Part shown: positions 6,918 to 43,498 of the stretch, one piece after another
How positions within the stretch are numbered: the stretch's first letter is position 1
Layout: each line of letters starts with the position of its first letter
The notes under the pieces: generated by a model
Database searches by the model: none
Seen by the model: only the letters and a program-made list of their open reading frames with translations
Told to the model about the DNA's origin: nothing
Virus record (IMG/VR): IMGVR_UViG_3300012917_000005
Span: 1 to 50,657 of that record
Reading direction: 5' to 3' (one strand)
Origin: a virus
Lineage: Duplodnaviria; Caudoviricetes
DNA: 50,657 bases
Translations under genes and position numbers: made by a program

Positions 6918-7159
6918 GCATTGTCACTCGTCTTACTAGACAGTTAGCTTCTAAAGGTGTCAAAGGCTCTAAAAACGTAGCTACAGGTTTATTAAGGAAA
7001 TATGGTGAGCTAAAAGGTAATAAACTTACTAGTAAAGGTAGGAAAAGACAAGCTTTAGGAAAAGCCGGTAGAGCTATATCGCGTGCCGCTAAATACAGTG
7101 GAAATCAAACAGGTGCTTATAAATACAATTCAAAAACTAATAGAGCGGTGAAGAAGTGA
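6914..7159 (+). CDS. Small highly basic protein
   Basis: K/R-rich; GTGA overlaps with both neighbours. Confidence 0.7.
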   Translation: MSIVTRLTRQLASKGVKGSKNVATGLLRKYGELKGNKLTSKGRKRQALGKAGRAISRAAKYSGNQTGAYKYNSKTNRAVKK

Positions 7160-8961
7160 CCGGTAAAGTACTAGAACTTCACAATGTAATCCAACCAGAT
7201 ATGTTAGCTACTCGTATTACTGAAAAGTGGGTACAGTGGGAGACATTACGTCAGGTAAAGAAGAATGACTGGGAAGAAGTACGTAGATATGTCTATGCTA
7301 CCGATACTACTCAAACGACCAATAACCAATTACCTTGGAAAAACAAAACAACTGTCCCAAAACTCTGTCAAATCAGGGACAATCTTTACTCTAACTACAC
7401 AGCAACTCTCTTTCCGCAGCGTAAGTGGCTTACATGGGAAGCAAACGAGCGGGATTCTAACTCCAGAGATAAACGGGATGCTATAACCAACTATATGGCT
7501 TGGGTAGTTTCTCAACCATCTTTTAAACATGAGATGGATAAGATTATCATGGATTATATAGATTTTGGTAATTGCTTCGGTACTGTCGAATGGGTAGACC
7601 AAAGAGTACAACTACCAGATAAGACACAAGTAGGATATGTAGGTCCAGCAGTCAGACGGATCTCTCCTCTTGATATTGTTTTTAATCCTACAGCAGAAAA
7701 CTTCTATCAATCTCCTAAGATTGTACGTTCTATTATTTCAATGGGAGAATTAAGAGATTATCTCCAGAGGGTATCTACTGATGAAAATAGACAACGTTAC
7801 ATGGAGTTATTTGATTATCTTAAGAATATTAGATTCCATGCTAGAACGTTCCAAGGAGATTGGATCCAGAGAGATCATCTCTATGCAATGGACGGATTCA
7901 CCTCGTTTCGGGCGTATTTATTACAAGATTTCGTAGAGATCATAACTTTTTACGGCGATTATTATGATTACATCAATGACATATTCGAGAAGAATAGGGT
8001 AATTACAGTAATAGATCGCCACAAGCTGATCTCCAACGAACCAGGTCCTTCATACTTCGGTTATGCCCCTATATTCCATGTTCCATGGCGTAAGAAGCAA
8101 GATAACCTATGGGGTATGGGACCTCTAGACAATCTAGTCGGTATGCAATATCGAATGGATCATATTGAAAACATGGGAGCAGATGTATGGGATTTAGTTA
8201 CATTCCCAGTACAGAAGGTTAAAGGATTCGTCGAAGACTTCACATGGCAACCAGGTGAAAAGATATTTGTATCAGATGAAGGAGATGTAGAACTATTAGT
8301 ACCCGAAGTCAACGTAATGCAATCCGATATGAAGATAGAACGTCTAGAACAATTGATGGAACAAATGGCAGGCGCCCCTCGAGAAGCAATGGGATTCCGA
8401 AGTCCAGGAGAAAAAACTAAGTATGAAGTTCAACGTTTAGAGAATGCCTCCGCACGTATCTATCAAAACAAGATTAAGCAGTTCGAGGAACAAGAAGAAG
8501 AACCTCTTTTAAATGCCCTCCTAGAGCTAGCTAGACGCAATATGGTAGGTGCTACGACGATTAAGATATTTGATGACGAGTTTAAATTAGCTACTTTCCA
8601 GACCCTTACAGTCGATGATATAACAGGTATAGGTCGTATTAAACCTGTAGCTGCTAGACATTTTGCAGAACAAGCAGAACTCATTCAGAATCTTACTAAT
8701 CTTACTCAATCTAATTTATGGCCTACAGTTCAACCTCACTTTTCAGGAGTTAAACTTGCTAAGATATTAGAGAAGACATTCAATTTAGAAGACTTTGAAG
8801 TAGTGACTCCCTACGTAGCTCTTGCTGAACAAGCAGATGGCCAGAAGCAGGCTCAAGCTCTGGAAGAGCAGATGCATCAATCGACTATGACTGCAACAGG
8901 TTTAGGTAATGACTTCGATATGGGACAGAATCCACCTCAAATTCAACCTCAAGGACAATAA
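7156..8961 (+). CDS. Portal protein (head-tail connector)
   Basis: 601 aa downstream of terL; motifs RISPLDIVFNP, WGMGP and EKTKYEV typical of podoviral portals. Confidence 0.85.
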   Translation: MTGKVLELHNVIQPDMLATRITEKWVQWETLRQVKKNDWEEVRRYVYATDTTQTTNNQLPWKNKTTVPKLCQIRDNLYSNYTATLFPQRKWLTWEANERDSNSRDKRDAITNYMAWVVSQPSFKHEMDKIIMDYIDFGNCFGTVEWVDQRVQLPDKTQVGYVGPAVRRISPLDIVFNPTAENFYQSPKIVRSIISMGELRDYLQRVSTDENRQRYMELFDYLKNIRFHARTFQGDWIQRDHLYAMDGFTSFRAYLLQDFVEIITFYGDYYDYINDIFEKNRVITVIDRHKLISNEPGPSYFGYAPIFHVPWRKKQDNLWGMGPLDNLVGMQYRMDHIENMGADVWDLVTFPVQKVKGFVEDFTWQPGEKIFVSDEGDVELLVPEVNVMQSDMKIERLEQLMEQMAGAPREAMGFRSPGEKTKYEVQRLENASARIYQNKIKQFEEQEEEPLLNALLELARRNMVGATTIKIFDDEFKLATFQTLTVDDITGIGRIKPVAARHFAEQAELIQNLTNLTQSNLWPTVQPHFSGVKLAKILEKTFNLEDFEVVTPYVALAEQADGQKQAQALEEQMHQSTMTATGLGNDFDMGQNPPQIQPQGQ

Positions 8962-32297: not shown

Positions 32298-32555
32298 TTA
32301 TATTTGTATTCCTTTTATGTAGTGAAATAAGAGTAGGTATAATGCTAATTGACCTAAACCTGCTATTGGTGCAAATGCAGACATGACTACAAATGTCTGT
32401 GCTATTTCCAACCATTTATCCTTCTTCTTAGATGGTTCTGGTTTCTTGGCAGAATCTTTTATTTCCTTTTCAACAGTCTTCCAAAAGTCTATTGTTTCTT
32501 TCATCTGTTGAAGAGGACTTTGTTGAGGACCGAAAGGACTTCCGTATCCATACAT
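32298..32555 (-). CDS. Small membrane protein (start revised to MYGYGS)
   Basis: GGAGG RBS; C-terminal hydrophobic segment. Confidence 0.6.
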   Translation of the reverse strand: MYGYGSPFGPQQSPLQQMKETIDFWKTVEKEIKDSAKKPEPSKKKDKWLEIAQTFVVMSAFAPIAGLGQLALYLLLFHYIKGIQI

Positions 32556-32669
32556 TGTATCCTCCATTCTAAATGGATTAACGGGGGGATGTGTCCCCCC
32601 AAACTTAAGGTGGTTGTTTGATTTGTCCAGAGTGCACATCATGTAACACGATTGCATCTCCATTAGTTA

Positions 32670-33680
32670 AAGTCCCGGACATGAGACTCTAGAAGTCTCC
32701 CTACGGTAGACAACCGTCGAGACCTTGGCTCTTGTCGCGTAGGCCGGTATAGCTTTCCAACCTCGTAAGGGGATCGTCTTCCTGGCGATACGCTTCTCTA
32801 CATCGAGAGGTCTGATGTGTTTGTTCCAGGTTTACTCCCACCGAGTAGTTTTATGATGGGCGTTCCGGCTGGTTCGTTTCCCAGTCCCCGGTTATACCAG
32901 TGTACTTAACCACTGCGTCTCTTTAGATCATTCATCTGTTCATCACAGATCGGCGATCTCTGTAGAGTCTTCGATACTGAGACATCATTCCAGATGACAT
33001 TTTCACGCCTAATGGAAGCGCTAGTCAAACAGTCAAGATCAACTCTTCAGAAGAGTGTCTACTTGCTAATGATGTTACTGCTCAGTCTTTTCAGATCAAC
33101 ATCCTTGTTGAATACAGACCACAGGTTGTTCGGTCTTACAACATCTCTGGAGTTGCAATCCAGCGCATCCGATCACATGGTACTCGCTCTAAACCAATTC
33201 CGAGTTCGACACTTATCTGGTGTCCTCATGAGCGTACCGTTGCTTGTCTGCCACCGTGGCCATATCAAGGTTTAGATCTTACTTGTCCTAATACTAGATC
33301 GTACTTTCACTCAAGAAGGATTTGAACCTTCTATTTATACCAGTTAAGTCTGAGTTACTGTAAGGAGCTACACATCTCCTTAGGATACTAATATTAGTCC
33401 TGCTTATGCTTCTCTGTCAGTTAGACAGTGACTACGGTATCTCCACTAGTCCTTTGCCGTCTCACAGTTTGGACCCTGTGTTCTAGACTAAGCTGACTGA
33501 TCACGTCTGTCACCGGAGGTCTAGATTTGGATACGGTTCAGTCCTACTTCCTTATATTTTAACCTCCATGTAAGGATACACGGGCCTACTTAGCGCTCTC
33601 CTACTGTATAGCCCTCAAAAGCTAGTACGTTACTCACGTAAACGAACCGTGCCTTCCGTACATTTGTTTACAGGAGCGCT
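32670..33680 (-). ncRNA. Putative ~1 kb highly structured non-coding RNA
   Basis: No credible ORF; about 20 stems seen by eye; most G-U pairs favour the - strand; embedded T-arm GAAGGTTCAAATCCTTC. Confidence 0.75.
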
Positions 33681-33697
33681 TATCGAGAGAGAGGTCA

Positions 33698-34006
33698 TCA
33701 CTCCTCTGTTGGTCTCTTCCAAGGAAGAGCTGTGGATGTTTCTCCACTACTCTCGGATCTGTCTGCTGGCCACTCTCTGCCAGTATTATCTGAAGCTCGT
33801 TCGATTGGAGATCTTCTTGAGATCGGAGGACTTGCTTTCTCGACAATCTCAACAACCTCACAGATTGCACATTTCGAAGTAGTTGTATCGTTTAATTGTT
33901 TGGTAGCATATTCAATTGCCTCAGACAGTGTTGCTTTGCAACCAGGAGGTAAACCATTTTTTGATACATGTTTGATAACAACCACAGCATAGAATTTCTC
34001 GTTCAT
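33698..34006 (-). CDS. Hypothetical protein
   Basis: 102-aa ORF with AAGGTG RBS. Confidence 0.65.
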   Translation of the reverse strand: MNEKFYAVVVIKHVSKNGLPPGCKATLSEAIEYATKQLNDTTTSKCAICEVVEIVEKASPPISRRSPIERASDNTGREWPADRSESSGETSTALPWKRPTEE

Positions 34007-34120
34007 AGATCACCTTTGGGTATGACGTATTTATTACGTCTGTTAGTTCGTTTGATCGTAAGATCTAAGAAATGATATTTAGTCTTCCATCTATTTTCAT
34101 AGATACCTGGATGTTTAATC

Positions 34121-42714: not shown

Positions 42715-43095
42715 CTAAGAGTTGAATAGTTCCTGTAGAGACTTTCTCTTTGGTTCTTCAGGAACAGATATCTCATCCCAGGGTGGTTTATCTTTTGTAC
42801 GTGGTACAAGGTCATCGATAGACCACACCTTAGCATACTTCTCATATAGATAGTATCGTTCGTCGTTGGTTATCTTCCCTTCTAGGTAAGTCTTATCTAC
42901 CTGTTCGAGGAATAGATCAGCTACGATAGTCTCTAATTCTTTATCTCTTTCCGGAGTCATATTGTATTTCCTCTTAAGTCTCTTCCTGTAAAAGTAAGGA
43001 ATGAATTGATAATAAGAAACAATGTTTCTAATCATATAGTATATAAGTACAGCTAACATGCCGAAGGCTACTATTAGTCCATACTCTTCACGCAT
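42715..43095 (-). CDS. Membrane-anchored hypothetical protein (start revised to MREEYG)
   Basis: GGAG RBS; the longer ORF would overlap the tRNA. Confidence 0.7.
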   Translation of the reverse strand: MREEYGLIVAFGMLAVLIYYMIRNIVSYYQFIPYFYRKRLKRKYNMTPERDKELETIVADLFLEQVDKTYLEGKITNDERYYLYEKYAKVWSIDDLVPRTKDKPPWDEISVPEEPKRKSLQELFNS

Positions 43096-43109
43096 GTTAG
43101 TTCTCCGTA

Positions 43110-43216
43110 TATAGGTGGACCGCTGGGTGTTTACCTTTCTATTGCCACGTATCTGATACAAGCCAACACCAAATAGCTCGTATAAGCTAGCAAGAGGGTA
43201 CAGCGGTCCGCTTATA
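43110..43216. ncRNA. Structured RNA-like element with a possible pseudoknot
   Basis: 16-bp closing stem, internal hairpins, GGTGTT/AACACC complement. Confidence 0.5.
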
Positions 43217-43223
43217 GTCGGTG

Positions 43224-43310
43224 TGGTGCTCTCAGCCAGACTTGAACTGGCACGGTCATACGACCATCGGATTTTAAGTCCGATGCGTCTACCTATTTCG
43301 CCATGAGAGC
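43224..43310 (-). tRNA. trnL: tRNA-Leu (anticodon UAA)
   Basis: GCTCTCATGGCGAAATAGGTAGACGCATCGGAC-TTAAAA-TCCGATGGTCGTATGACCGTGCCAGTTCAAGTCTGGCTGAGAGCACCA; cloverleaf with long variable arm and encoded CCA. Confidence 0.96.
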
Positions 43311-43498
43311 TAGATAAGAAACCAGGTTGCACGAGAAGCTTGGCAACTCTCATACGATCAGTCCGTATGGCAACCTGGAATAAGAACTCCGGTGGGAGTC
43401 ACAGACGCCGCTATTGCTCGTACCTGTTTCTCAACCACCGGAGTCTGCTCCGTAATGTGGGTTCTACGGAGACTAACATAGTGCACGGTATCTGAGGA

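Follow-up and report, generated by a model that had tools for sequence, protein, structure and literature searches.

A candidate large RNA in a T7-like soil phage

The virus record IMGVR_UViG_3300012917_000005 (Caudoviricetes) comprises 50,657 bp at a completeness of ~99%; we refer to this whole stretch as the window. On its - strand, at positions 33355-33309, it carries a 47-nt element for which an original prediction had proposed a mimic of the transfer RNA (tRNA) elbow: an acceptor-like stem, a D-like loop containing GG and a T arm, with neither an anticodon arm nor a CCA end. The element lies in a ~1.1-kb gap between two small - strand genes, within a block of DNA-metabolism genes. We scanned 20 window proteins against Pfam. 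Among them, a primase-helicase, a uracil-DNA glycosylase and a phage endonuclease I form a T7-like replication module, and weak matches were obtained to PD-(D/E)XK and to a T7-type terminase. A protein of 663 amino acids (aa) at 35483-37474 matches phage family A DNA polymerases, those of cultured phages all at 38% identity or less.

The gap contains no - strand open reading frame (ORF) longer than 46 aa, and a DNA search of the 1.1-kb region against 50,697 phage records gave no match. Four related viral contigs were found through the neighbouring 285-aa gene (ORF285). A metagenome scan with a pattern taken from the flanks of the junction described below returned four stretches, namely three contigs already known and one new, partial one (L107). 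The gap could be aligned over its full length in five phages, with a mean column identity of 73% and many visible compensatory changes. The frequency of G.U pairs identifies the - strand as the sense strand of the RNA. On this comparative evidence, the gap encodes an uncatalogued, non-coding RNA of ~1.1 kb that is supported by covariation and presumably transcribed from the - strand. No paper listed in our literature searches appears to describe this RNA; an IMG/VR survey with a list of 10,006 viral RNA candidates (PMC10690425) may overlap with it. A scan of genomes with the core pattern gave 35 matches, about the number expected by chance, and with an E limit of 1 the nhmmer profile extended none of them. 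Scans for promoters and terminators gave no signal above shuffles.

Anatomy of the tRNA-like module

The sequence of 33355-33309 agrees letter for letter with the - strand string on which the prediction was built. Its parts are a closing stem of 6 bp, a linker of 18 nt that includes a GG, and a canonical T arm (Table 1). The closing stem contains five Watson-Crick pairs and one G.U pair. The T arm is built like its canonical counterpart in tRNA: a 5-bp stem, a G53-C61 closing pair and a loop of the form U54 U55 C56 R57 A58 N N, with U54 at 33326, U55 at 33325, C56 at 33324, A57 at 33323 and A58 at 33322. UUCAA followed by AU, closed by G-C, also fits the sequence pattern of the T-loop motif, in which a Watson-Crick pair closes the five nucleotides U-N-N-R-A and two bulged bases come next, and the same pattern occurs in 61 analogous hairpins of related phages. 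A sixth pair, A33332-T33314, could extend the T stem of the window copy. The closing stem and the T stem are only 18 nt apart, with no anticodon arm between them, and the 3' strand is followed by GAAAG in place of CCA. An acceptor-like closing stem joined to a canonical T arm, inside a large structured RNA, is thus borne out by both the anatomy of the sequence and the comparative data.

Table 1 Features of the RNA and of the module it contains. All positions refer to the window.
Feature	Positions	Strand	Remarks
Predicted large structured non-coding RNA	~32583..33690	-	Ends placed by conservation
Helix P-x, 5' strand; closes the three-way junction	33384..33400	-	6/14 pairs with compensatory changes
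Hairpin Hx, GUGUA-type loop; second branch of the junction	33361..33382	-	6/7 pairs with compensatory changes
Junction strand CAGUA, 5' of the module	33356..33360	-	Junction strands 12/13 invariant
tRNA-like module (closing stem, GG linker, T arm); third branch of the junction	33309..33355	-	Present in 4/6 clade members
Closing stem, 5' strand ACUCAG	33350..33355	-	Pairs with 33309-33314
Variable 'D-site' (ACUUAACU)	33342..33349	-	~55-nt hairpin inserted here in L003 and L107
Conserved single-stranded linker GGUAUAAAUA	33332..33341	-	GG at 33341-33340; 8/10 columns invariant in 4 sequences
T arm, 5-bp stem GAAGG/CCUUC, 7-nt loop UUCAAAU	33315..33331	-	GAAGG 33331-33327, loop 33326-33320, CCUUC 33319-33315
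Closing stem, 3' strand UUGAGU	33309..33314	-	Abuts the T stem without a spacer; from sequence and pair count
Junction strand GAAAGUAC, 3' of the module	33301..33308	-	Nearly invariant
Helix P-x, 3' strand	33285..33300	-	Pairs with 33384-33400

Such a T arm is not expected by chance. We call a T arm strict if it reads GGTTCRANNCC and its stem has 5 bp or more. One such arm exists in the 50.7-kb window, both strands counted, compared with a mean of 0.01 in 200 shuffles that preserved dinucleotides inside 500-nt chunks (2 of the 200 had any). With an abutting 6-bp closure as well, none of the 200 shuffles had one.

The branch is optional in close relatives

The branch occurs in four of the six members of the clade and takes two forms. 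It is short (47-49 nt) in the window and in L005 and long (~100 nt) in L003 and L107, where the additional hairpin occupies the 'D' site. In L002 and L004 it is cleanly missing. Four sequencing runs that we compared contained only the window sequence and the L005-type variant, with no further variation and no RNA ends.

Where the branch is present, the GG is kept in all four sequences and the T loop is identical in three, contrary to the outcome that would have refuted the original prediction, namely a D-loop GG and T loop that are not conserved in homologues. The loop reads UUCAAAU in these three and UUUAAAU (C56U) in L003, which keeps the GG. Of the D-like loop, the GG is conserved, and the 3-bp stem (TTA/TAA) can form in the window and L005 only, with no counterpart in L003 or L107. 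What is conserved is the single-stranded linker and not a D stem.

The same junction carries other structures in more distant relatives. Its strands recur in L032, L055 and L061, and a covariance model built from four sequences (R1) recovered the complete junction in three loci out of 66 others. The third branch is a 12-nt hairpin in L032, and a different 101-nt branch in L055; L061 has a branch of 61 nt that contains a T-loop-like GGGGUUCAAAACC, and L037 has yet another structure. The T arm of L075 was aligned to that of the window by an nhmmer profile, and L075 was not reported by the R1 model. Branch sizes at the junction are 12, 49, 61, 101 and 101 nt, or none, and the site is a hypervariable expansion point. 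Since the T-arm branch is missing in two of six relatives and replaced in distant ones, it is dispensable for the large RNA.

A second module of the RNA is also found at more than one place. A hairpin of ~45-57 nt (CCAGGAAGAC ... GCUAYACCGG) lies close to the RNA's 3' end both in the window (32737-32793, - strand) and in L004 (~2000-2041). It lies inside the T-arm branch in L003 (850-910) and L107 (3698-3756), with closing stems that differ by site. Its occurrence at different sites indicates that modules have moved within the RNA. Contigs of the L005 type skip 32734-32793 exactly.

The element is not a tRNA

ARAGORN made one tRNA call in the window, tRNA-Leu(UAA) at 43224-43310, and reported no tmRNA (transfer-messenger RNA). 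The check with this program that the prediction had proposed therefore left 33309-33355 without a tRNA or tmRNA call. Rfam at the gathering score likewise matched only the tRNA-Leu across the whole window. A permissive Rfam scan of 32300-34100 (E up to 10) returned nine matches, all far under their cut-offs, and none of the nine was to a tRNA, tmRNA, Y RNA, GOLLD or ROOL model. The tRNA-Leu is encoded on the - strand together with its own CCA end, and the T arm of the module was not copied from it. A listed 212-aa ORF (42715-43353) that covers the tRNA-Leu is probably spurious.

The element also differs from tRNA in its parts. There is no cloverleaf: the short forms have no anticodon arm, and the long forms insert an unrelated 55-nt hairpin. 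In tRNA, the acceptor stem has 7 bp, is formed by the ends of the molecule and carries a discriminator base and CCA; here, the stem has 6 bp including a G.U and closes an internal branch. As to the D arm, the GG is present in all four sequences and a 3-bp stem is possible in the two short forms only. The exact 23-mer made up of the T arm and the 3' strand had no match in a search of 185,579 species, each represented by one genome. The element is a tRNA-like building block, not a tRNA.

Covariation of the surrounding scaffold

To assess the fold around the element, we used a 294-column piece of the alignment and 58 pairs, these being the RNAalifold consensus plus the closing stem of the element. 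Across these pairs, 95.4% of the cells were paired, compared with 88.6% in shuffles, and compensatory changes occurred in 15 pairs, compared with 7.2; in neither case did any of 500 shuffles reach the observed value. When the pairing was slid along the alignment as a control, 28-49% of the cells were paired and 0-3 pairs had changes on both sides. The module stands apart from this scaffold in its sequence constraint. It is invariant in 37 of 41 columns (ungapped, four sequences), compared with 18 of 33 in P-x and 11 of 23 in Hx. Where present, the module is under stronger primary-sequence constraint than the scaffold.

T arms recur across a family of phage RNAs

By alignment of the 285-aa protein, we fetched 79 loci of related ~50-kb phages. 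In most loci with at least 48% ORF285 identity, the corresponding site holds an ORF-poor stretch of 0.5-2.1 kb. These gaps matched no Rfam family (gathering score, 19 loci; E limit of 1, 8 loci) and gave no ARAGORN tRNA (75 loci). They do contain T arms, and on one strand. In 76 loci, a set that includes near-duplicates, we counted 63 strict T arms in the gaps in sense orientation and none in antisense; the rest of the loci had 3 in sense and none in antisense. We then dropped the 4 loci of the close clade, another 10 that were near-duplicate or short, and all with less than 1.5 kb upstream. The remaining 65 loci had 58 strict T arms, compared with a mean of 0.02 and a maximum of 1 in 100 dinucleotide shuffles.

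The signal was also seen with no motif assumed. In the 975 hairpins whose stem has 5 bp and whose loop has 7 nt, TTCGA was the most frequent loop word (56 cases), and TTCAA (10), TGCGA (13) and TGCAA (10) were also high. The bare 11-mer GGTTCRANNCC was found at 88 distinct upstream sense sites and in the other three compartments at 2 (upstream antisense) and at 3 and 1 (the two strands outside the gaps). Three further outer pairs can form at 61 of the 88 sites, where ~5% would be expected, and these 61 use 32 versions of the outer stem. Judged from sequence, this is covariation across the T-arm copies. Since the stems of the window's own module are invariant in its clade, support for their pairing comes from these analogous copies in other phages.

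The 61 strict T arms resemble those of tRNA at their borders as well. In 45 of them the stem is immediately preceded by a U, and in 37 it is immediately followed by a C. Only 13 could form a sixth pair; the other 48 have a stem of exactly 5 bp, as in tRNA. With a slightly looser motif, we counted the T arms per locus in the 51 loci that had at least 48% ORF285 identity and full upstream sequence: 13 had none, 20 had one, 14 had two, 3 had three and 1 had four. Eight of nine more distant loci had no T arm. Many T arms have a further hairpin directly behind them, along with a conserved word that resembles GGUGGCGAAA, and T arms that run into conserved hairpins in this way look like integrated parts of the fold.

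The T-arm copies of eight loci were also compared with the tRNA model. None scored as a tRNA at E up to 1 except that of L089, a distant relative without a large gap. There, positions 2818-2889 form a borderline tRNA (Rfam 30.4 bits, cut-off 29; no ARAGORN call) at the corresponding position, ahead of the gene for the 285-aa homologue. We therefore rejected the L089 T arm as an example of the armless module, as it sits in a borderline full-length tRNA. The series from a near-tRNA to a bare T hairpin suggests, though it does not prove, that the T arms descend from tRNA genes. Elsewhere, in L052, a 96-nt stretch downstream of the 285-aa homologue (7082-7177) matches the Rfam tRNA model with 41.3 bits and has no ARAGORN call; it may be a tRNA with a long arm or an intron.

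Hairpins with 7-nt loops of the UGCAA type recur too, in the window at 33147-33163 (- strand) and in many related loci. Several relatives have such a hairpin just upstream of a T arm (e.g. GGGUUGCAACC ... AAU, then the T arm), and the neighbouring hairpin in the window has a different loop (AAGACCGA). The UGCAA-type hairpin may be a loop-loop partner of the T loops.

Other features of the RNA and its neighbours

The most conserved word of the large RNA is CCUCCGGUGACAGACG followed by GAUCAG, at window positions 33504-33519 (- strand). With small changes, this word is kept in the distant relatives L009/L039, L011/L037, L012, L022/L030, L052, L058, L075 and L093, and makes a good anchor for searches of the family. 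Downstream of the RNA, the listed 121-aa ORF from 32663 probably starts at the ATG at 32555-32553, which follows a GGAGG (32565-32561); in L002, the part of the ORF that precedes it is not open. Between the RNA and the 121-aa gene lies a G6/C6 hairpin (32600-32583) that may end the RNA.

A T-loop elbow as a proposed docking module

What is this branch for? The explanation that we prefer is that it is an accessory, probably tRNA-derived 'top-half' module in the ~1.1-kb RNA of a T7-like soil phage, which would present a T-loop elbow for docking. We give this reading a probability of about one half. The T stem (5 bp) would stack on the closing stem (6 bp). The loop of the T arm would adopt the T-loop fold with its reverse Hoogsteen pair between U54 and A58. 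The GG of the linker would probably lock the T loop, as G18 and G19 do in tRNA through pseudouridine 55 (psi55) and C56. The outcome would be a tRNA-like elbow, a flat and exposed knob suited to docking. It could dock on a different region of the same RNA, on a second RNA copy or on a host factor able to recognise the T arms or elbows of tRNAs. An RNA partner is favoured by T arms that are integrated beside conserved hairpins, and by the simple hairpins that replace the branch in relatives. A protein partner is favoured by the full tRNA consensus with its exact 5-bp stem, by the variable valency and by the invariant stems of the window copy. The module itself is one instance of a habit of the family, in which an RNA has 0-4 T arms, and is a dispensable decoration rather than part of the RNA core. 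Of the three ideas in the original prediction, a tertiary module of T loop and D loop fits the comparative data best, with the reservation that no D stem is kept.

Several observations weigh against the elbow reading. In the clade, the stems of the module are invariant (5 of 6 pairs in the closing stem, 5 of 5 in the T stem), so this copy itself has no covariation; the sole variable closing pair, the innermost, is G.U in the window and G-C in three relatives. At the proposed contact between the GG and the T loop, C56 is nearly invariant, and the C56U sequence of L003 keeps its GG. Inspection of the alignment of six sequences revealed no receptor and no segment whose presence co-varies with that of the branch. 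The window copy is an outlier at its flanks, with A at -1, U at +1 and a possible sixth pair. Nor is its folding energy remarkable: a 66-nt piece had a z-score of -0.47, with 62 of 200 shuffles folding equally well, and a 49-nt piece had a z-score of -1.56, with 13 of 200 doing so. The stretch was found in 17 sequencing runs, all of them DNA contigs from soil or freshwater and none RNA. Finally, an abutting closure of at least 6 bp is present in 22 of the 61 T arms, compared with 14-33 in offset controls, which is no overall excess. A count within the control range confines the 'top-half' shape to a subset. Seven of the 22 closures have an insert of 47-52 nt, compared with 0-3 in the offset controls, and form a subset of cloverleaf size.

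A wider proposal builds on the elbow reading, and we offer it as tentative and on balance rather unlikely. The RNAs may form an undescribed class of ornate RNAs of 1-2 kb in T7-like soil phages, with the tRNA T arm, in 0-4 copies, as their signature building block. The T arms would have been exapted from tRNA genes and would serve as a multivalent display of uncleavable elbows. Such a display could capture host factors that read tRNA (defence nucleases, modification enzymes or the ribosome), or could zip copies of the RNA into an assembly like the GOLLD and ROOL cages.

Alternative explanations

The strongest competitor to the docking elbow, one that we still regard as unlikely, is a bait or sponge for proteins that read T arms and elbows, such as tRNA-targeting defence nucleases, TruB/TrmA, EF-Tu or the ribosome; the RNA would then display several look-alikes that cannot be cleaved. 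A generic T-loop motif needs less than the full tRNA T-arm consensus, and that full consensus (exactly 5 bp, G53-C61, UUCRA and a 5' pyrimidine) is what is found here in many copies. A copy number of 0-4 at variable positions is what add-on valency would produce, and the stems of the window copy are invariant in sequence where the scaffold helices covary. The T loops of YrlA RNAs bear tRNA modifications, according to one study (PMC4201824). Against this reading, 13 of 51 related RNAs have no T arm, and several T arms run straight into conserved hairpins as integrated structural parts would. No tRNA-related enzyme was found among the Pfam-scanned window proteins, and no Ro60/TROVE in the record. 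The specific form in the original prediction, a decoy for anti-phage nucleases, has the further difficulty that an element with no anticodon arm does not mimic the cut site of anticodon nucleases.

A functionless origin, as the decaying remnant of a tRNA gene or as a neutral expansion segment at a variable site of the RNA, seems to us quite improbable. The range of branch sizes at the junction would suit it, as would the borderline tRNA at the equivalent place in L089, which has no large gap. So would the movement of modules, since a ~45-nt hairpin is found at the T branch in L003 and L107 and at the 3' site in the window and L004. The pattern of change tells against it: the module has 37 of its 41 columns invariant, over lineages in which one neighbouring helix varies in 15 of 33 columns and the other in 12 of 23. 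Decay would not selectively keep the T arm in 61 copies with 32 stem versions, and the identical 23-mer is absent from the genomes of the 185,579 species searched.

Of about the same low probability is the processing signal of the original prediction. Host RNase P would cut 5' of the closing stem, around 33356/33355, and a 3' nuclease such as RNase Z would cut after 33309, which would split the transcript or release a 47-nt mini-RNA. The T stem does abut the closing stem without a spacer, as in a tRNA minihelix, and the family includes the seven closures with a 7+5-bp stack and tRNA-like spacing (against 0-3 in controls). According to the YrlA study, RNase P cuts a tRNA-like domain, the YrlA of M. 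smegmatis, and leaves two other YrlA/Yrn1 RNAs uncut, which is ascribed there to acceptor stems of less than 7 bp (PMC4201824). In the window, the stack amounts to 6+5 = 11 bp and not 12 (7+5), and RCCA is absent, even though the tRNA-Leu of the phage encodes a CCA. The branch also sits inside a covarying three-way junction, where a cut would sever the domain enclosed by P-x, and it is missing in two of six close relatives whose RNA is otherwise intact. For most T arms of the family, moreover, acceptor-like closure does not rise above the control level. Stack length, missing RCCA, internal position and patchy presence all weaken the case for RNase P or RNase Z.

The attachment sites of phages frequently duplicate a host tRNA from its T arm to its 3' end, but an attP core for integration at such a site is very improbable here. 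The exact T arm and 3' strand matched none of the 185,579 species (one genome each) and no integrase was found among the 20 Pfam-scanned proteins, which together dispose of this DNA-level reading. The replication module, moreover, is of the T7 type, the element includes the 5' strand of its stem as well, and relatives have up to four T arms, on the sense strand only.

Comparison with known systems

T-loop tertiary modules occur in RNase P, riboswitches and ribosomal RNA. In such modules, raiA being one example, a U-N-N-R-A pentaloop either takes up a base by intercalation or forms a pair with a G far away in the RNA, and the branch described here can be likened to them. The difference is that the T-loop module is a 5-nt motif, whereas the phage RNAs have a whole tRNA T arm with a 5-bp stem, a G-C closure and a loop UUCRANN.

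The tRNA-like domain of tmRNA consists of an acceptor stem and a T arm, with a GG-containing analogue of the D loop, no D stem and no anticodon arm, and its 5' acceptor strand is separated from the T arm by a variable insert. Its topology of stem, T arm and GG, with no anticodon arm, resembles that of the element. In tmRNA, however, the acceptor stem is formed by the ends of the RNA and is accompanied by CCA and a tag reading frame, while the element is an internal branch.

The tRNA-like domain of YrlA, like the element, is a tRNA mimic without an anticodon and with a conserved T arm. YrlA RNAs are reported to be modified by tRNA enzymes and one of them, with a 7-bp acceptor stem, to be cut by RNase P (PMC4201824). 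YrlA adjoins and binds Ro60 and has a D arm. The phage record, by contrast, has no TROVE gene (PF05731 gave 0 matches in 50.7 kb; control genomes do match), and the element has no Rfam match. The element thus bears a likeness to T-loop modules and to the tmRNA and YrlA domains, and it lacks the defining features of each of these families.

The closest analogue is GOLLD, a large structured phage RNA with tRNA-type units as optional parts. Phage tRNAs are reported to be covalently embedded in the GOLLD linker (bioRxiv 10.1101/2024.12.08.627333). The units in GOLLD are tRNAs, whereas the unit described here has no anticodon arm, escapes tRNA detectors and is often a bare, integrated T arm. The Rfam models of GOLLD and ROOL matched nothing in the permissive scan of the window or in the 19 and 8 family loci searched with Rfam.

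Taken alone, the element is a modest finding, and the surprising part is the use of T arms across the family. A 47-nt optional branch offers a testable handle on the job of a large phage RNA, and the natural series of RNAs with 0-4 T arms can be used to address RNA architecture, oligomerisation or the capture of host tRNA machinery. It also suggests that large RNAs can be built with tRNA genes as raw material. Mimicry of tRNA and T loops are both known, usually as single domains; what is new here is a canonical tRNA arm that recurs as a plug-in module in an uncatalogued family of phage RNAs of 1-2 kb.

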